DNA of 64,000 nt from Camelus dromedarius (GCF_036321535.1 NC_087436.1:29886001-29950000); one strand, 5' to 3'; positions 591 through 43,337 are shown, counted from the first letter of the stretch. Translations and numbers: made by a program. Notes: a model not told the origin generated them from the sequence alone.

Positions 591-1481
591 TAACTCTAGA
601 ATTACCTTCCTTGCCTTACTTTCACAGAAGGCTGTCTTTTATGAATAAAAGATAATGTGATCTTTTTATACCCCAAGCTACTCTACCTAACACCCCAAGC
701 CATCCTCTTCCCCACTGCCATTGGCTTCCTTCGCAGTGAATTCAGCCTGGATGTTATCACAATTTCTGATTAAGTCAGGGAAACGCTTCCATAGGCGTGG
801 CAATAACTGCATTCTGCTGCTTAAACGCAACTGGTTCCCCAACAAAATCTATAACTAAGCCCTCTGCCCCTCAGGAAACTCTTGTCCTGAGATGTTAGGC
901 TCCAGAGGAAAGTCAGAGCCACTGGAGCTGGGGCTTCTGAGAGGCCAGGTGACCGCACTTTGTAATGTAAGTCTATCTTCTGAAACCCATATGACTATAA
1001 CTTTCATATTACTTGCCATTGAGTTTCTTTAAGAGTTTAATAGACTCTAAAAAGTTGGAGTTTTATCCAAGCAAAAGACAAAAAAGGTCCTTGAGCAAAG
1101 TATGTACATAAACTCTCAGTGATTGGCTACTTCGCCCTGAACTTTCTGATCTAGCAATGGTCTCCTCCAATTTCAAAATAAAGTCTTCTGAAGTCTCCAG
1201 GCTCCAATATTATTATGAAAACACTGAGAAGAGATTTTGTTATTTCAGAAATACAATGTTCAATATTGGACCCTTAAATCTATTTTCCTATGTTCCTTGA
1301 TTTGCTCTTTTCCTTACTCTTGTCTGTCTGCCTAAGACTTCAACAAATTTTTGAATACACTTTGAAACTTATGGAATATTCTAAAATTGATAATAACTCT
1401 GGGACTATGCATTTTTTCCACACAGTATTGCTCTAATGTTTTTACAAGATATCTTTCATTTTTCTTTTTCTTTTTTTTTTT

Positions 1482-1968
1482 GAGTAAAGGTAGATTTATT
1501 CAGAGAGACACATTGAAAGGCAAGAGAAAGGCCACAAGATGTGGGAGTTAGGTACTCAGATTAAAAGTAGGTACACACTCCATAGACAGAGTGTGGGCTG
1601 TCTCTGAAGAGGGAGCGAGAGAGGGCAGCGGCAAGGCACTTTTTATGGGCTTGGTGGCTCCATAGCTAATTAGTGGAAGCACCAGTCTAACCAGCCTGGG
1701 GAAGGGGCTGGGATTCCCAGGAAGTTGGCCATTTCCCACTCTTCAACCCTTTGTGGCTAGCCTTGGGGCTGCTGTGGCGCCTGTGGGCATGTTATTCACC
1801 ATGTTAGTATATTACAATAGGCATATAATGAAGCTCAAGGTCTACTAGAAGTTAAATCTCCCACCATCTTGAGCCTCAAGGCCTACTGGGGGTTGAATCT
1901 TTCACCATTTTGATGTTAATTGCTGTAGCATTCCTTGAATGGCTGTGCCCTGCCCCCTTCCTGTATCA
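1482..1968 (-). mobile_element. 3' LTR, U3-R only (U5 absent), MER41-like
   Basis: Starts TGATACAGG right after purine tract GAGAGGGGAA (1969-1978). TATA-like CATAAAAA at ~1640-1647, MER41-type 'cactctgtctatggagt', AATAAA at 1495-1500, no terminal U5/CA. Confidence 0.75.
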
Positions 1969-4019
1969 TTCCCCTCTCAGAGATTTTACTCCCATAGTAT
2001 TACGGGGTTGCAGAGGGGTGAAGGTCCAAGTCTTCTGAAACTACTTCCAGGCTGAGTAGGGGCGTTGATCCCATTTAACAGGGAGTAAAAATCTCTGAAT
2101 GCCTAATCTAGGGGCCCTAGGAGCAGGACAGCCTTTTGTTTTTGCTTCCAGAAGTTTAAGAGTATGGGCTAGAATCCTCGTTTAGCCATCATGTGATGTG
2201 GGGCTGCTGTAACCCACTGTTTCCATTGACTTCTGATGAATTTTCTTAAAGATGAAGCACCTTTGTAACAACAGTTTGACAGCCTGTAATAACAAAAAGA
2301 CTTAAAAGCCATGGCTAAACATTTGTAATTGATAATGAGGCTTGTTTGTAATTATTAGAATTATGACTGATTGTATTTAACATGTTAAATAATCCTAGTT
2401 AACTTAGTATCTAAGATGTCTCTCTCTTTTTTTTTTTTTGAGCATCTCAAAGTTAGCTGGTGCTACAAAGAGCTTTTAGAATTTGTTAAACATTTAAAAT
2501 CCTGATTATGCATGAATTTTTTTTTGTATTTTATGAAACTCTTTTACTGAAAACATACATACTTTCCCACTGCATATTAAAATACTTATTTTAGGAGCTT
2601 TAATTACATATTGTAATTTTAATCCTTAAAAACCTAAATTTCTGGCAAAAACCAAGAAGCAAGCAACTGTGAATTGGTTGTCATATCACCGTTTCCTGAC
2701 TGGAAACTTATGTTTTAGTTTTTTTTTTCCCCTAAGGCAAAGGTAGATGAATCTAGACCTTCCCAGCAATTAATGTTTTAATATTTTATAAATGACACAG
2801 ATAGTGAAAATTTTAACTTAGTTTCAAGTTTTAAGTACCGAAATTTGAGGAGACAATTTTAGATATTTCCAAAACAAACACCTATAGAGTTTACCCAAAA
2901 TCTCTTACTTTGTTACTTTTTTTAAAGTTTTTTTTAATTGAGTTATTTTTCTTATTGACAAATTTGTAACAGATGTAATAGTCTTACTTGACCTCTAGTA
3001 AGCCTAGGCAGAACAGAAGTATTATACTTAACACTGATGTCTCTAAAGACATGTTTATATTAATTAAACCAAAAAGCTTAAGCTAGCTTTAATACCAATA
3101 CCAGTACTGAATACTTTTTAGATAATGTGAATCTGAAATTTATTTTGGCCAGTTTTCTCTATGTTTGAGTATTTATATAAGTACTTAATTTTCTTAAGCC
3201 AATTAAAGAGCTTCTTTACCATTTAATTTTGCCAGTACCATACATCTATGACATACAAACCAGACACTTTATGGTTTTTATTTTAAAACTTTAGTCATGA
3301 ATCAGATATAACAAAGTAAAACCCATTAGCTACAAAAGAGGTTGGATTTAAACTGGCAGATAGAATTTAAGTTGCCCATCTAGATGGCTAAGCCTTTTTA
3401 CTAATATTTATGAAAAAGAGACAAAATTGTTCCTTGTTCTTAGCAAACTAAGTTCCAAATTATTTATTTCCCCCCCCCCTTTTTTTTTTTTGAGATTAGG
3501 ATTTTAAAAAGATAGTGAGATCAGGGTTCCTGGAGAAGACAGGGTAGAATATTTGTATATCAAAGGCATAGGAAGGCGAGTTTCTCCCAGAAAGACTTTG
3601 TTTCTTTAAGGCTAGGGAAAAAAAAAAAACAAACAACTTTTAGAAAAAAATACTTGTCTCTTAAGATAAATATGTAGGGGAGGTTTTGGGAGGTGAAGAA
3701 GGATTGGTGGGCTTTGTAACATTTTCGGAGCCACACCTCTAGACTTGTAAAGACTAGATTTGTGGAACAAAGAGTTTTGTTTTTCTTCATGTAGCTTAAG
3801 GGAGGCTTTCCCCAAAAATTCTTATCAGGCTTCGAATATCAGCTACGGTCAGCTTAGTCCAACTGATGGCCTCCCATTTGGCCATCTATTTACAAGCACT
3901 TTTGAGAAGCCTTTCTAGATTTGAGAAGTTTTTTACTTAAGGCTCTTGTTTCGGCCTTTGATCTGAAGAGACTTGCCTACAGCCTCACGTGGTCCCATTT
4001 CTAATGATAACCTGACAAT

Positions 4020-4232
4020 AGTAGCTCTGTCAGGGCCCTTAGTTTCCCAGATAGCAGGGTTTACTTGAGAAAAGATACGGGGTGGAAGGGAGACCTCTTC
4101 TGGTTTAGTATTGAGGTGGGTTCTCAAGGCCAAGAGCAGTCATTTTTCTTGGTGGGTGCCTTCTTCATGAGGATCTCCAAATTGTAGTACTGTCTGGAAT
4201 TTAGTGAGTAAAATCCCTTCCAAAAAAGGGGC
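4020..4232 (-). pseudogene. Gammaretroviral protease C-terminus / RT N-terminus remnant
   Basis: Translates PFFGRD/(frameshift)LLTKFQ...*...SQVNPAIWETKGPDRA, matching the ERV1 motifs PLLGRDLLTK and VNPxVW...PGRA. One frameshift and one stop. Confidence 0.75.
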
Positions 4233-5019
4233 CATTTTTCTGATTGTATCTGTGAGGTTGTATTCAACACAGATAAAGATATACACTACCCAAGTGTTCT
4301 CAAAAATCCTTTCTACATACCCTTACTTCAATTGAAGCAGGAATTCAAGGTCCCAAAGTTACTTATCTATGACTGATCTCAATTTAGATGAAACATTTAT
4401 TTCTTCTGGTGGGAATGAGCTCAGTATTGCTAAGTAAGAGTGAAAAACAAAACAAAACAAAATAAAACTCTCTTTTAAAATTCTGAATTTTTTTAACCAC
4501 TTAGTCACTCTAAAATAACTTCATGAATCTCTTGCTTCACCCTCTTAGAACTCTGGAGGTGATCTGATTTCCAGGGTTAGTGACAAAGTTTGGGATTATG
4601 GATCATACTTCTTCAGAGCTTGTGGGCTGCTTAATTCTTAACCATTCTTTGTCCATTCTGATATCCAGAGCTACCCAGTCACTTAGTGTGTTTCTAGTCA
4701 CTGTCTGTGTGCCTCCCTTGTTGAAACCCTTCATTACAGCATGGTCTTTGACCACCAGTTTCACAAGTTCTTTGACTTGTACCTTTCTCGAGAGGCTTTT
4801 GGATATAGTAGATTACACTCAGCCTATCTTTTGTGCTCTGAGTATGCTGTTCAGTATTTGAATGCTGCTTCTCACCACATTCCATTTTTCAGTGTTCTCC
4901 AAGATCACTCATAATCTCTTTGCCTTACATAGTTCTCTTCCAGTCTTTCTCTTCCGCACTGGTCACACACCGAATGTAGGGTTTTCCTGAAAGTAATGTG
5001 GTCTCCTAAGACGTCTAGG

Positions 5020-14700: not shown

Positions 14701-16461
14701 TCTTTATCCAGTATTTTCTATTCTCTATATACACAAGAACATCCTATATGATCCGACATTTGTATTCAGGATAAAACAAACTGGTAAATGTTTTGTAATT
14801 TTCATTTCATGTGAAATGAAGAGCATTATTCTGGTAATATTCAGGGAATGATTAGTCCTGTCTCATTTATATTTATTACTCTTTTCTATTTTGATAATTT
14901 TTCACATATTCTGATTATTCATTACCACTGCTCACACAATTGATTGGCTATAATGAATACTGTAAGCTCTACTCAACTGAAATAGCTCTTCTTCATAGGA
15001 TTCATTGGAAAATAATAAAGCTGTGACAGGTAAATATATTGGATAGGGTAGTGCAAGAAAATGGATTGGAACAGGACAATTGAAGAAAAAGAAAAATTAT
15101 AAAAGACTTTATTAGAAAAGGTAAATGTACAAAAATAGCACACGTTTGCAAGAAAGAGATTCTATGAATCAATTGTACCTTTGTACAGTGTTTCTTAATA
15201 CCTTCTCTCTTGAAACACGTTCTAAAGGATCTCCAAAATCAAAGAATCTTTAATGGAATGCACCTTCGCTGAAAGGTAGCAACTTGACACACTTCTTTCA
15301 GGAGAGTTTGAATTCTATAACGGAAATATCATGACATTAACCAAAGGTGTTCACTAACTGATCTGAATTAAATAGATACTAACCAAAGGAAAGGTACCCT
15401 TAGGAATTTGAGCGTAGAATAATAATGGCCTAATTTATTCAGAGTATAAAGTGAAACTTAAGTTCAGCAAAGCAATTATAATTTCTATCTTCCAGAAATG
15501 TTTTATTTTAAACAGTGCATCTGGTTATTTTTCTTTCATAATAATTTCTTGCTATCCACAATAAACAATATCTACTTACCTATCTATCTAGCCATCTCTG
15601 TATATTTTCATTCATGAATGCAAAACATGCTGTTACTTGAGGTTAAAAAATAAATCTATATTGCTGTTGACTTCAAAGACTCTAAAACAACAAACTAACC
15701 TTAGTAAACTCCTTTTTAAATGAAATATATGCAAAAATAGTATTTTTAAAATAGTGAATACAGGACAAGGTTAAGATTTATTATTAAATGTAAAAATAGC
15801 AAAAAGGAAGAATCTAGTTACTTACCTCTGACTGGTTTACAACTTTGGGATAATTTTCAATAGGACTAAAAATTCCTACAGAATCTTTTATCAGAATTCG
15901 TAAAAACAACTGCCTTTATTTTATTCCTACTTTTAATTGCTACTTCCTGAATAATATGAAACAAACAATTCATGTACATGATTCAATTTCTGAGAATAGT
16001 AATACAATTCTAAAAATGTGCTTTTTAAATAATATGCAATGCAATGATCTTTATAATTGTCAGAAATGCTTTATTTATTATTTTCCTCTATCTAGTGAAG
16101 TTACGTTTGCCTTCACTAGATTTTTAGAAATAATGAACAGCATAAAATTAACAAGTATTCTTAAATGCTTACAATCGAAAAGGATAATGTTGTATAGATT
16201 AACTCAAAGTTTTTGAATGTTCAATAATTATTTATTAAAATAGATTTTCAATGAAGTGAATTTTGAAGGTTATCAGCTTTAACAAAAGCTTGATTTTATT
16301 TTGTTCGCTAATTTAAGTAAACTACTCGTTATAAATACAATTTCAGGTTAGGAATGGAAGTAATTTTGATGATGCTTTCTGCCTTAGTATTGACTCACTT
16401 GTCAAATTGAAGACTTGCTTGTATGTTTAACTTATGTTGCATCATCAATTTAACTATATTT

Positions 16462-17097
16462 CGTCAAAGATAAATATAGCTAGACATTAGTTAAAGCGGT
16501 AAGAGCAGATTTTATTCTGTAACTAATGACAGTAGGGGAAAGAGTTGAGCTCCACTTCAATTTTTGCAGAGGTGACTAGTGCTTTAAAGGAGAAAAGGGA
16601 GTAGGGAGGAGGCAACAGGAAGCTCAGTATGGTCAGTCAGTGTTGATCAGTATAAATGCACTTAGGCCACCTTTGTCTGTTTCTGGCAGTTATTGAAGTT
16701 AGAAGTTTATCCTGCCAGAGAGTCTGGGAGACAGAGGCCCTATCCTTCCTGATAGATATTTCAAAGAAATAATTTTCAGTTCCTTGAGAAAGACAATCCT
16801 GTGCTGTAGGAGATGCATACATGCATTTCTCAAAGAAACAGTGGTAGAATATAAAATTGTATGCTCTTTTTTTTTTTTTAATACATAAATGCTCTAGGAA
16901 AGGGGTATGTTGGCAAGAACAAATGGCAAATTATTTTGGCAGCCAGGTGCTTTCTCTAGCAGGCATTTTAAAGGAGGTTGGGTTCCTCCTAATGACAGGA
17001 TCTTAAGCTTTTAGAAGACATGCTAGAGTTTGGTCAAGTCTCTTAATGCAGAAGTTTGGACAGAGTCCCATGTGCCGAGTGTTCCTTGCATTTCTCA
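16462..17097 (-). mobile_element. MER67-like ERV1 solo LTR
   Basis: Minus strand starts TGAGAAATGCAAGGAACACTCGGCACA...GTCCAAACTTCTGCATTAAGAGACTTGACCAAACTCTAGCATG, like the MER67 5' end. AATAAA near 16511-16516. Confidence 0.75.
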
Positions 17098-17293
17098 AGT
17101 TAAAGGAAGCTACACTGGTGAACTATAAAGAATTGAGACTGATGCAACGCCAACCCATGCCTCTGCTTGGAAGGGGCTAGGGAAGAGAAAAGCAAATAGA
17201 ATTAAACAAATGTATGAATCTGTTCAGCATAGCAGAAAATCAGAACAAGGGGATGTGTGAATATTAATATAATTATTGACAATGTTAAATAAT

Positions 17294-32455: not shown

Positions 32456-33714
32456 TTTTAAAGTCAAATCATAGCTTTTCTTGGTAAACACTTACCCTAA
32501 TTCCTCCCAATACAATTATTTTAGACATTCTTCAAATTATACTATATGTGTATGCTGCAAAACAAAAACTCACACATGATTATAATTATATAGACAAAAT
32601 AAACATAGTACAATTCTGAGATTTTAACCCAAATCCACACCTCTGCCATACACAAAAAATTAAAAATGATTATCTAAAGTTTTTGTCTTGTTCGTTCATC
32701 GTCAAGGATGTTTTCTGTTTCTTCTGCCAAGGGCAAGTGGGTGAAAGAGAAATCAAAGTGAAAGGAAAAAAGATTATTAATAAGATAAATTGATTGAATT
32801 TTGAAGTAAAAGAAAATTGGATTTAGGTAACTAACTTGATAGGAAAAGTTCTGTGTGAGATGTAAGAACTTGGGCTGTTCAGTTTCAAAAAATAGATCTT
32901 AAAGGTTTATTTTCTTATGAATAAGGAATACTATAAGTAAAGAACCAAATTACCCAAACTATAACAAGTTGTTTTCGAGGAGTGATTAGAAGCATTATTA
33001 GAAAAAGAGAGATATGTTTAGAAGCTTAGTCAGAACATAAATAAATGTTCTGATTCCCTCCATCCTGAGCTGAGTCCTGAGAGGAGAGAGTTGAATTTAG
33101 AAACTCCAGATCGGTTTGGAGGAACTGAAAATAAAACATGCTTCAGTATCTATATAAATACTGTGTACATGTTAAGTTTTGAGAGAGATTTTCCATGCTA
33201 GCATTGCACAGAAATGGTGGCAAAGGGGATGTAACCAAAGAGTTTTAAGGTCGTCTGCTTTCAAAACCTTTACCCCGTATACCATGAGGTTTCCTCTACT
33301 TCCAAATGGAGAATCCAAATTTTCCATAGGCCATCCTGTTTTAGAGCCACTGACATGTCAGAAAGCTAGTGAAAACTTAGAGGAGTAATAAAGGAAAATA
33401 TAGGATAATTTTTTTCCCATTGTTGGAGATAATATCTTCAGACCACAGGACTCTGACTTAATGTTATATTATAGACTGCTCCCACTCCAAAAATTCTGTG
33501 GCAGCTGTGGAAGAATTAAGACAAGCTAAGTGAACACATTAAGAACTTGAAACAACTGGCTCTACCTAAAATTGGCTAATTTATAATTTAAGATATGAAA
33601 ATGGAAGCATTTACTACAATAATGTAAATTACAGAGAAATAAAGATTATTACAGTCCTTTACAGCCGAGTTCGTGTAACTGTAAGACTTTTGTCTACTAG
33701 ATCTCGCAGTAAAC

Positions 33715-37933: not shown

Positions 37934-40229
37934 ATAGATATAATTTTATATCTATTTTGTAATTTGCTACTCAAACACATTTAATTTGTCTTCAAATGCA
38001 ACCATTTGTGAAATGTTTCTGACAACTGTGTATTATTAACTAATACTAAATAGTAGCAAAATTAATGGTTTTCCTGATACAATAGCAGGAGTTAAAATGT
38101 TTACTTCAGTGCGCAACTCCAGGTGCAAGATTGACAGGATATTCCATAAATGTGTTGCTCTGTAAAGCGGTGTAATGAAACGTCCTTACATAGACTCATC
38201 ATCCTACTTCCGCCTGCCAGCAGGTTTAATGTTTTAGTTCCCCAGTTCCTTGTACCAAATTTTGTATGTTATATTTGTATAGCAAATATAATTCACTCTG
38301 CATTAAGTAATAAGGATATTTTTTCTATCATAAATTGGAAGGCAGTAATCCAATGTGTGTCATCAAGAAACCTCATGTTTCTTCTCTTCTCTGCTGTCCA
38401 CGATGACAGCTATATGCTAAGGATGGGTCATCTTGTCATCATAATAAGATTACTGACAGTAAAATATACTTTATTTTTCTTTATTTCATGAACAGTATAT
38501 AAAAGAGAGTAGCCTCACATACTAATGCAATAGAAGTCTTTCCTTTGAGTCTGATTGAATCTGTTAGGTTACCTGCAAACTCTTAAAGACTATCTTTAAA
38601 AGAAATCATACATTGTGTTTGAATTAAACCTTTGTTCTCTAACCAAATATTATCAAAATGCCATTTACATGGTTATCATAGGCTTATCTGACTCTACCCC
38701 TGGGGCCGGGGTTGCCACCTCTGAGCCATATCGGTTGCTTGGAGGAAGAGTGATTATCTTTCCAACATTTTTATGTTATAAAGGCAAGGGGAAAGAAGAA
38801 TGGATGTTGAAAACAGAAGTATATGTTTCACTAAAATAATTTCAAACTGAGATTTCTTCAAAAAGCCTTTTCTTATGCCCATATCACTGCTCACCTACCT
38901 AGAACTGAAAATAATTTATTCCCCTTAAATTCTAATAAGTACCTCATTCCTGATCTTATGCATGCCTCTATTCCAGGTTCTTGTCCTGTGGTACGTGTCC
39001 CTTTGCATGTGCATAGATGTCAGACCTCTATCACATTGTCCTATGGAGAATTGGGTCATGGGGAGCAGGCACTAAGATGGCCAGTAAGCAAACAATTGAT
39101 TTGTCCTGTGATCCAGAAACCTTGTGTTTCCTGTCAGAATAGAGACTTTAATTAAGTGAGTAAGTAAGTAATTAACCATTTTGGAGACAAAGATGAGATA
39201 TAGTTGCACAAACATTACCTTCAAAAAAAAAAAAAAAAAGACGAGTGCCCCATGGGTCAATGTAAATTGATAGTTGATATGTTGAAAATTGTTTGATCAA
39301 TTGGGAAATGCATTTTTCTACACTCTGTTACCTATAAAGAAGAATTGGGAAGTGGTTGAAGATCAAATAACGGAAGATAAGGCTGAAACAAGAAGCTGGA
39401 GTAGTGCTTTTGTTTTTTGTTCTTTCCTCCAAGTAGCAGGAAACAAATTGAAGAGTCCTGAGAGCCAAATGGGGCTTTGGTGAACCAAACTCATTTTCAG
39501 GAGTGGAGGCATTTTCTGTGTCCCTTTATTCCTAGTTTTGCTTCTATCCTGATATCAGAAGCCTTAAGGATTAGGGGTGAGACCAAAGTCTGCACCCAAG
39601 TAAGACTTCATCCTGATAGACTGGAACTTCAGGGATAGGAGGAATTCAGAAGTTTATGGTGCTGTTAGAAACAGATAGCCAAGACACGTCAGTGGCTCTA
39701 AAACAGGATGGCCTATAGAAAATTTGGATGCTCCATTTGGAAGTAGAGGAAACCTCATGGTATTATGGGGTAAAGGTTTTGAAAGCAGATGAAGTGGATG
39801 ACGGCCATGGAATGTAGGGTGAAATCCTGATAGTGTAGAAATCATGCTGAGTGGTAGATAGAAAGAGCCCTTGGGCCCAGGCACCACCTAGGTACTGGAA
39901 AGTGAACAGGTGGGTAGGCAGAGGGAAAAAAAGTCTCTGAGGATGCTAAAGCTATCTCCACAATTTGTCTCCAACACCTCTCCCCCAAATACTAGTACTT
40001 TCCAGTCTCCATCTAGGAGATAAAAGGATCTCCTGGGAACTCTGAATGTAACTTTGGAAATGCTGAACTTAACCTATAGGATAGAGCAAAGCTTGCAATG
40101 AAAAAACATAAAAGAAGTTTAAATGACTTTGTATTGTTTTAGTGCTTCTACATATGGATGTATAATAAGAATTGATATTGGATGTTATATGCCCGTAATT
40201 TCCCATCTCATAAGTGACAAAGGGATCAT

Positions 40230-41547: not shown

Positions 41548-42413
41548 TGTTATGCATTGAATGTTTGGGCACCTCCCATTCGTATGTTGAAGCTTGTAGA
41601 CTGGAAAAAATGCACAATGTAAAAGCAATGAGTTTCAGTTTTATTCAAGGACCTTACTGAGGACTATAGCCTGGGAGGTAGCCTCTCAGATAGCTCTGAG
41701 GAACTGCTCTGAAGAGTTAGGGAAGAAGCCAGTATAAATATGAATTTCGGGGCTGGGAAATATATGTAATCAAGCATGCACCTTGATAAAAGATTACTGC
41801 TAATCATAAAAAACAGACATCTCAAGTTAATGATTTCAGTGTTTTTCTACATATGAGAAGACGCAAGAATCCAAAGTCATTGAAATTCTTCCTTAGATAT
41901 GTATCTTAACTACTTAGGGGCCATGTACCCCAAAACACAGAATGTTTCATCCCATGTTTCTATGTCCTGAATTCCCCTCAGGATGCATGGCCTGTGGGTG
42001 ACTGCAGTAGGTTGCTACTTAATCATTGGATAACTGGATGATGAATGAAACTCTTTGTTCTTTTTGATTACCAGACCTACCCTCAATGTGATGGTATTCA
42101 GAAGTGGGACATTGGGAACGTAATTAGGTTTAGATGAGATCATGAGGGTAGGGCCCCATGGTGGGATTAATGCTCTTATTAGAAGAGGAAGAGAGACCAG
42201 ATATCTCTCTCTCTTTCTCTGGCAGACACAAAGGAGATTTCATGTTAGCAGATACTGCATTGGTGACCACCTACTACACCAAGAGAAGAGGACTTTGAAT
42301 GAAACTTTCCTTGCTGGCACCTTGATTTTGGACTTCTCAGTCTCCAGAACTGTAAGAAAATTTTCTTTTCTATCATTGCTATGGTATTTAATCATTTCAA
42401 AGCCGACTCAGAC
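41548..42413 (+). mobile_element. MLT1A/MST-type MaLR LTR split by a nested ERV1 LTR
   Basis: 5' part 'tgttatgcattgaatgtt...gtatgttgaagct' (41548-41594) resumes at 42074 'cctcaatgtgatggtatt...gggattaatgctcttat...gactcagaca'. Confidence 0.85.
41595..42073 (-). mobile_element. ERV1-type solo LTR (laurasiatherian style)
   Basis: TG...CA termini, 'ttttatt' poly(A) signal on the minus strand near 41640, 'ttactgaggactatagcctggga...ctctcagatagctctgaggaactgctc'. Confidence 0.75.
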
Positions 42414-42602: not shown

Positions 42603-43337
42603 TGTTACTGAACTTAGTCCTGGCTGCTTTAAAGCCAATCCTGGAGTGACAAATGTTGATTGGAAATAAAAAGTTGCTTTATTCAGGAGGTTGGACTGTG
42701 GAGATGATGGACTCACGTCCAAAAGCCTATTCCCCACTGCCAATCAAGGGGCGAGAGCTGTTAAAGGGGAGAGTGTCAGGAGTGTATACGTGGAGGGAGG
42801 GGTTTATGTGCAGAACAGCACAGTCAACCCTGACAATCATCTTTAAATTGTTCATATGATGGTCTGATCGGCATCATCTTGATTGTTTCAAGTAGAGTTA
42901 ATCTTCAGTTCCAGGGTCATTTTTTCCCATTTCCTTGAGGCCAGTTCTTGGAATTGTGTAAGGTGGAGAAGCTTATGTCAGGACTTCAATCTGGTCATCA
43001 TGTAGTTAACTTCTTCCCCCTGGTAGGGGTTTCAGTATCTGCAAGACAACTCAAAAGTATGGCTGAAAATATTGTCTATAGCCCTTGAGGAGGAACTAAA
43101 TGTCCTTGGCTTTGTTTAATGACTAAACTATTATTAGTTGGTCATGTTTAATTACTTTCCTTTGCATCTGCATTTTGTCACTTCTCTGGTTAAGTTTATT
43201 CTTTGGCTAAAGTTTTTTGTTTGATTGTTTTGTTTTGTTTTGTTTTTGTTTTTTTAACCGACAAGAGGCAGTTGGACAACATGGTGGGGGATGGGTGGTC
43301 TGTCTCAGGAAGGCACGTAGGTTCCTGCTTGGTTTTA
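42603..43337 (-). mobile_element. ERV1-type solo LTR
   Basis: Starts TGTTACTGAAC, 'gttgctttattcaggagg' (AATAAA on minus), 'cagaacagcacagtca', 'atagcccttgaggaggaactaaa', ends 'ggttcctgcttggtttta'. Confidence 0.75.

Follow-up and report, generated by a model that had tools for sequence, protein, structure and literature searches.

An ERV fragment lies on the minus strand of a 64,000-nt stretch of Camelus dromedarius DNA (the window), flanked on both sides by the same 9-mer, CATTTTTCT, found at 1457–1465 and again at 4233–4241. The element consists of one LTR and 2.26 kb of internal sequence, and its features are collected in Table 1. Read from its 5′ side, the apparent order is protease, start of reverse transcriptase (RT), non-coding sequence, env-tail-like sequence, polypurine tract and LTR, the coding labels being putative assignments from short motifs. 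The original prediction described an LTR that starts after a purine tract, ends 13 nt past AATAAA and then runs into an A-tract, as well as a 9-mer repeated on the two sides of the insert; both descriptions agree with the sequence, and the repeat copies are identical. The predicted break inside the motif PFFGRD is likewise borne out, as the translation begins just inside 4232.

Table 1. Features of the ERV insert and its junctions, in window coordinates
Feature	Position	Strand	Basis or remark
ERV fragment, 2,751 nt	4232 to 1482	-	5′-truncated, single LTR
Target-site duplication, element 3′ side, 9 nt	1457..1465	.	Identical to 4233–4241
A-tract read as poly(A) tail	1466..1481	-	11 A, G, 4 A (16 nt)
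3′ LTR read as U3-R without U5, 487 nt	1482..1968	-	Multi-copy depth; U5 presumably lost
Polyadenylation signal AATAAA	1495..1500	-	13 nt before tail
Polypurine tract, abutting the TG (1968) of the LTR	1969..1978	-	Sequence
Possible env 3′ end remnant, multi-copy	1979..2320	-	Resemblance of short translated motifs
AT-rich non-coding internal region, non-autonomous ERV derivative	2321..3935	-	Depth, paralog pieces, frames
Broken protease end and RT start remnant, holding the insert's 5′ break	3936..4232	-	Translations; putative motifs
11-nt internal match to left junction	4140..4150	.	ERV sequence, rejected as duplication
Target-site duplication, element 5′ side	4233..4241	.	Depth at flank level from bin 4224
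Nick context TTCT/GA	4238–4243	+	At the 5′-side duplication copy

Only a stub remains of the pol gene, and the insert has no primer site. Self-BLAST of the 64-kb window returned no second LTR and no other copy of the element, in line with the predicted lack of a 5′ LTR. Having neither a 5′ LTR nor a primer site, the insert is no longer able to transpose by retroviral means.

In the protease/RT stub the reading frame shifts near 4210 and meets a stop at 4142–4140; from class I-like motifs we take the stub to comprise a putative protease end and RT start. One of four representative protein matches (P0004) is a relative, 55% identical to the stub over 49 aa and carrying a stretch that matches the internal 11-mer; the other three are repetitive proteins. 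P0004 aligns across the transition from RT-like sequence to non-coding DNA, and the pol deletion is therefore a feature of the family, which makes the element a non-autonomous derivative. Only one stop-free frame of at least 90 aa is present in the non-coding region (2321–3935), and the translated motifs of the adjoining segment (1979–2320) presumably resemble class I env tails. Pfam returned no relevant family for four proteins and then for eight (one irrelevant, weak LAGLIDADG match), and searches of PDB, of Atlas and for longer homologues with the stub proteins gave no matches.

Among the 32 pieces listed, 14 are internal paralogs, which differ from the element by 6–16% (median 11.7%). At assumed substitution rates of 2.2–3.5 × 10⁻⁹ per site per year, half of this divergence corresponds to 17–27 Myr, and half of that of the closest piece to 9–14 Myr. 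On such rates the insert would be roughly 10–27 Myr old.

We take the element to be MER41-like, and its LTR layout, as we judge it, resembles that of MER41. The assignment, made by resemblance, is offered as a lead only. The cetartiodactyl MER41 families are similar to the present one in having thousands of LTR copies: MER41_Vpa, MER41B_Vpa and MER41_BT reach such numbers in camelids and their relatives (PMC9435751, Table S13), and the accessible part of that paper contains no discussion of L1-made copies. A search of 11 of its 16 supplementary files, and of full texts, found no occurrence of a motif from the LTR of our element. MER41 itself is placed under HERVW9 in PMC4724089, yet the same source, in the part available, places PRIMA41/MER41 under HERVFRD-like.

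Rfam and ARAGORN reported nothing within the 64-kb window. The window also holds an L1 3′ end, which we assume to be of cetartiodactyl type. No young SINE was seen in the 64 kb, and this absence fits the SINE complement of camelids, which is almost entirely MIR (PMC8605555).

Twenty of 24 public sequencing runs contained the stretch or part of it. Contigs of four public runs, from four studies, were aligned to positions 1000–4700 at 80% likeness, skipping 1449–1487, and depth was used solely to tell single from many, as it does not equal copy number. The flank at 1000–1371 is single-copy in both DNA runs, and so is the sequence from bin 4224 on, where depth is again at flank level; ERV homology ends near 4223 and does not pass 4241, in agreement with the original prediction. 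Between these limits, depth reaches 11–153 times that of the flank in all 18 internal bins of both DNA runs, and 2,700–7,600 times that of the flank in the LTR (two DNA runs). The high LTR-to-internal ratio, taken together with the purine tract and the TG start, identifies an LTR retroelement whose solo LTRs are numerous.

Within the LTR, depth is uneven. A segment at about 1610–1695 is common to only a minority of LTR copies, and local depth in run X1 was only 1,025 at 1660 and 5,693 at 1671. At 1488–1495 the implied depth is about 1,300–2,400-fold, and family LTRs therefore still align there. Loose contig ends behind 1961–1962 mark the start of other LTR copies.

At the opposite end of the insert, paralog contigs reach 4178, 4186 and 4208, passing through the internal 11-mer, and locus-specific contigs cross the 5′ junction in all four runs. 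Because both the paralogs and P0004 run through the repeat at 4140, the 5′ break lies between 4208 and ~4232, adjoining the right-hand 9-mer. The 11-nt repeat at 4140 had also been considered as the 5′ end or as a duplication copy, and was rejected on the same evidence, the paralog contigs and P0004 continuing through it. Contigs from RNA runs cover the 5′ junction and not 1000–1371; since contigs cannot demonstrate transcription, we treat this coverage as a lead.

The position of the LTR end, 13 nt after AATAAA, suggests that U5 has been lost. One detail of the original prediction, a missing terminal CA, is not shown by the sequence: the last C of the LTR and the first A of the tract together form CA. 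Since CA is the usual dinucleotide of poly(A) cleavage, this end could represent a cleavage site, and it could also be read as the end of an LTR. Other LTR copies and U5 were sought elsewhere. Scans with LTR motifs across viral, metagenome and genome contigs gave 15 loci matching over at most ~30 nt, which we treated as chance; a protein-based locus scan recovered no other LTR copy among 13 candidates, and stop-free LTR frames used as protein queries for U5 in stray gene calls had no matches.

The combination of signal and tail is rare in its surroundings. Of 242 AATAAA motifs in the window, only the element's own has an A-run of 10 nt or longer that begins 8–30 nt downstream. The nick context TTCT/GA is two transitions away from TTTT/AA; its general pattern, YYYY/RR, occurs at 2% of window positions, and the context is only partly independent of the 9-nt repeat. 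The L1 endonuclease tolerates variant nick sites. Its consensus is TTTT/AA (PMC8565326).

The insert was very probably made by L1, whatever the kind of RNA involved. The features counted for such an insertion are the tail, the 9-nt repeat at the mapped boundary, the nick context and the single LTR. That the ERV's own RNA was copied in trans by L1 is a likely form of this event. The boundaries, the tail, the repeat and the multi-copy family are direct observations. From them we infer the loss of U5, the acting enzyme, L1, and the promoter of the RNA, as well as the approximate age.

Under this preferred reading, a class I ERV that lacks env and has a deleted pol would have given an RNA in the germ line, and this RNA would have been cleaved and polyadenylated at the signal of its 3′ LTR and captured by L1 ORF2p. 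The L1 endonuclease would then have cut the + strand at TTCT/GA; reverse transcription would have begun from the poly(A) tail and come to a halt after ~2.75 kb, within the protease remnant. Cleavage of the second strand 9 nt away would have given rise to the duplication. As the insert starts in the protease, its source would have been an unspliced, genomic-type RNA.

The original prediction of an L1 retrocopy stands in so far as an L1-type insertion is the best reading of the tail, the repeat and the truncation. Its further claim, germ-line copying of the ERV in trans, is not established from one copy, because the same structure can arise by orphan L1 3′ transduction or from host read-through RNA. 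In such a case, the RNA would have been polyadenylated at the 3′ LTR signal of a provirus and copied with a 5′ truncation that took away every part of L1 or host origin; no LTR-driven germ-line transcription of the ERV is needed, and with an L1 source the copying would have been in cis. We consider this rather improbable, although it predicts an identical tail, duplication and truncation and the L1 fragments within the window attest to L1 activity in the lineage. It would require a provirus beside an active L1 or within a germ-line transcript. Moreover, self-BLAST against the L1 pieces of the window found neither L1 nor non-family sequence between the repeats, and 18 of 18 internal bins are multi-copy, although an orphan event is itself expected to leave no L1 in the insert. 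The mouse Lama2 dy-Pas insertion is a precedent for transduction and resembles our insert in being L1-made and polyadenylated inside an ERV (IAP) LTR, but it carries a nearly full-length L1 (PMC6466679), whereas the camel insert carries none.

It is quite unlikely that the locus is an ordinary provirus remnant, with an LTR that ends at CA before an A-tract of the host, a deleted 5′ half and a 9-mer repeated by chance. Such a remnant would account for the CA at the LTR end and for the 4-nt inverted match between the element's end, CTCA, and the start of most other LTR copies, as read from the loose contig ends. The 9-mer is also frequent: A/T-rich and overlapping the tail, it occurs 12 times in the window (both strands), including inside the element at 4141. 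Yet an LTR ending here would have no U5 after its signal, which lies 13 nt from the end, and would thereby differ from other LTR-like elements of the window. Two of these have ~44 and ~74 nt from AATAAA to CA and no A-tract, and a third has a less clean end; they belong to other families and their duplications are not clean, so they serve as a soft control.

A remnant would, in addition, demand a coincidence at the 5′ break together with an A-run beside the LTR end. Across about 122,000 alternative positions of the window, the share at which a match of at least 9 nt to the tail junction ends inside a zone of 11, 21 or 41 nt is 0.4%, 0.7% or 1.4%, respectively, and deletion does not produce a flanking repeat. 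A direct integrase product would be expected to carry an LTR at each end, or to consist of a solo LTR alone, and neither fits. It should also show a 4–6-bp duplication beside TG...CA; the repeat here measures 9 nt, the A-tract lies between it and the LTR, and its other copy abuts the protease.

Sequence captured at double-strand breaks usually shows neither a clean duplication nor a nick site of L1 type. The 9-nt repeat and the L1-like nick context seen here make endonuclease-independent capture of ERV RNA or cDNA at such a break highly improbable, even though capture of retrotransposon and mRNA sequence at breaks is reported for mouse zygotes (PMC4516963).

Trans copying of the ERV's own RNA by L1 would place the insert beside the processed pseudogenes of HERV-W. 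These are defined by a U3-R end, poly(A), a TT/AAAA-type site and a 5–15-bp duplication, and they make up 135 of 213 HERV-W loci (PMC5016936). The camel element shares with HERV-W and Platyrrhini ERV-W pseudogenes a 3′ LTR ending in U3-R (here putative, judged from the position of the end), a poly(A) tail and a short duplication. Its 9 nt fall within the range of the HERV-W definition, and two further features of that type, a tail after the putative R end and 5′ truncation, are both present. It differs from HERV-W in being one copy, from a deleted, non-autonomous source, in a non-primate, with no 5′ R-U5 left. A review (PMC5537654) regards HERV-W as alone among HERV groups in being mobilised specifically by L1, and describes the determinants as unknown.

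Sporadic L1 retrocopies are on record for other groups, including a HERV-K(HML-2) rec-like mRNA at 2q32.1 and HERV-H (PMC3590776). Like the camel insert, these are single copies with a shortened 3′ LTR, a short A-tract and an L1-type duplication. The template of the HML-2 copy was a class II ERV mRNA that had been spliced, whereas the camel element would derive from unspliced genomic-type RNA. In the Hippotraginae, an artiodactyl group, L1 copied the ERV-derived RNA of ARTenvV and left a duplication of 14 bp (PMC9604959); there the template was the spliced mRNA of a co-opted env, in contrast to the camel element, a non-coding fragment of a multi-copy family that ends in an LTR. Among the four standard ERV modifications depicted in a nomenclature paper (PMC6114882) is L1 processing, drawn with larger 5′ truncations.

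The earlier view that L1-mobilised ERVs are described mainly for primate HERV-W was thus too narrow: in the sources available, HML-2, HERV-H and ARTenvV are described as well, and the process is drawn as a standard one. Dog ERV-Fc and lemur pSIV are reportedly also precedents. The accessible parts of PMC4798954, PMC13756887 and PMC2651035 contain neither of these, and those of PMC9927554 and PMC11359688 contain no further precedents. No report of an L1-made ERV copy in a camelid was found in the full-text literature, a scope to which subscription journals and Repbase notes do not belong.

A broader possibility, which we regard as unlikely, is that tailed, 5′-truncated copies made by L1 account for most of the spread of the camelid MER41-like, non-autonomous ERV. 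Depth over the internal part declines from the LTR towards the 5′ end (Spearman −0.60, p = 0.009, and −0.70, p = 0.001, over 18 bins, of which neighbours are not independent). This gradient is a weak hint of mobilisation across the family, and the 3′ internal sequence may instead be common among subfamilies. Left-flank contigs of both DNA runs end exactly 46 letters past 1448, and their last 30 letters start at the A-tract. If contigs break at shared 30-mers, the shared ends hint weakly at another locus with the same tract and LTR end; they would equally arise from a longer allele of the tract or from a variant close by.

The locus thus holds a real structure that was probably made by L1, a single copy produced through a known mechanism in an apparently unreported lineage, to which it extends that process. 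Counts based on LTR pairs or on RepeatMasker-style annotation can misfile inserts of this kind as truncated proviruses. The insert also implies that the germ line contained RNA that either came from this ERV family or read through it. Its importance would rise only if tailed copies are common. Were family-wide mobilisation true, it would represent a second, independent HERV-W-like case, outside primates, and the RNA features that make an ERV a substrate for L1 would become a testable, comparative question.

The LTR of the ERV fragment (1482-1968, minus strand) is a member of a minor subfamily, because its segment at about 1610-1695 is common to few copies: in sequencing run X1, depth was 1,025 at position 1660 vs about 200,000 elsewhere. 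In run X15, a single contig joins LTR sequence (1597) to internal sequence (4128), with a short side of 30 letters, which may come from a paralog with a deletion or from a joint formed by chance. At the sequence level, the U3 region carries candidate STAT-type TTC-N3/N4-GAA motifs at 1939-1931 and 1723-1714 on the minus strand, and GAS motifs are present in LTRs of the cetartiodactyl MER41_BT family, according to PMC9435751.

On the A-tract side, contigs from the left flank stop exactly 46 letters beyond position 1448 (window 1449-1494) in both DNA runs. This extension is at least 16 letters shorter than would be expected from merging with untailed LTRs only.

Other repeats identified in the window comprise three LTR-like elements and an L1 fragment (see table). 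The second LTR-like element appears to be inserted within an older LTR that resembles the MaLR type. The L1 fragment has a candidate duplication of 8 nt, and its tail is almost absent. Separately, two inverted copies of 97 nt each (33263-33359 and 39683-39779) are 90% alike and lie 6.3 kb apart; they are not a simple repeat.

Other repeats in the window, with positions and strand
Feature	Position	Strand
LTR-like element 1	about 16450-17110	minus
LTR-like element 2	41596-42070	minus
LTR-like element 3	42603-43335	minus
L1 3' fragment, 5'-truncated	33714 to about 34730	minus

Around the 5' junction of the ERV fragment (window 4006-4641), locus-specific contigs were recovered from one RNA run and one run guessed to be RNA, belonging to two studies, and one of these contigs crosses the junction at a depth of 41 with zero differences. 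The left flank (1000-1371) had zero depth in the same two runs and was covered in both DNA runs. The poly(A) signal of the fragment's LTR might be an end point of a host transcript; contigs as such are no demonstration of one.
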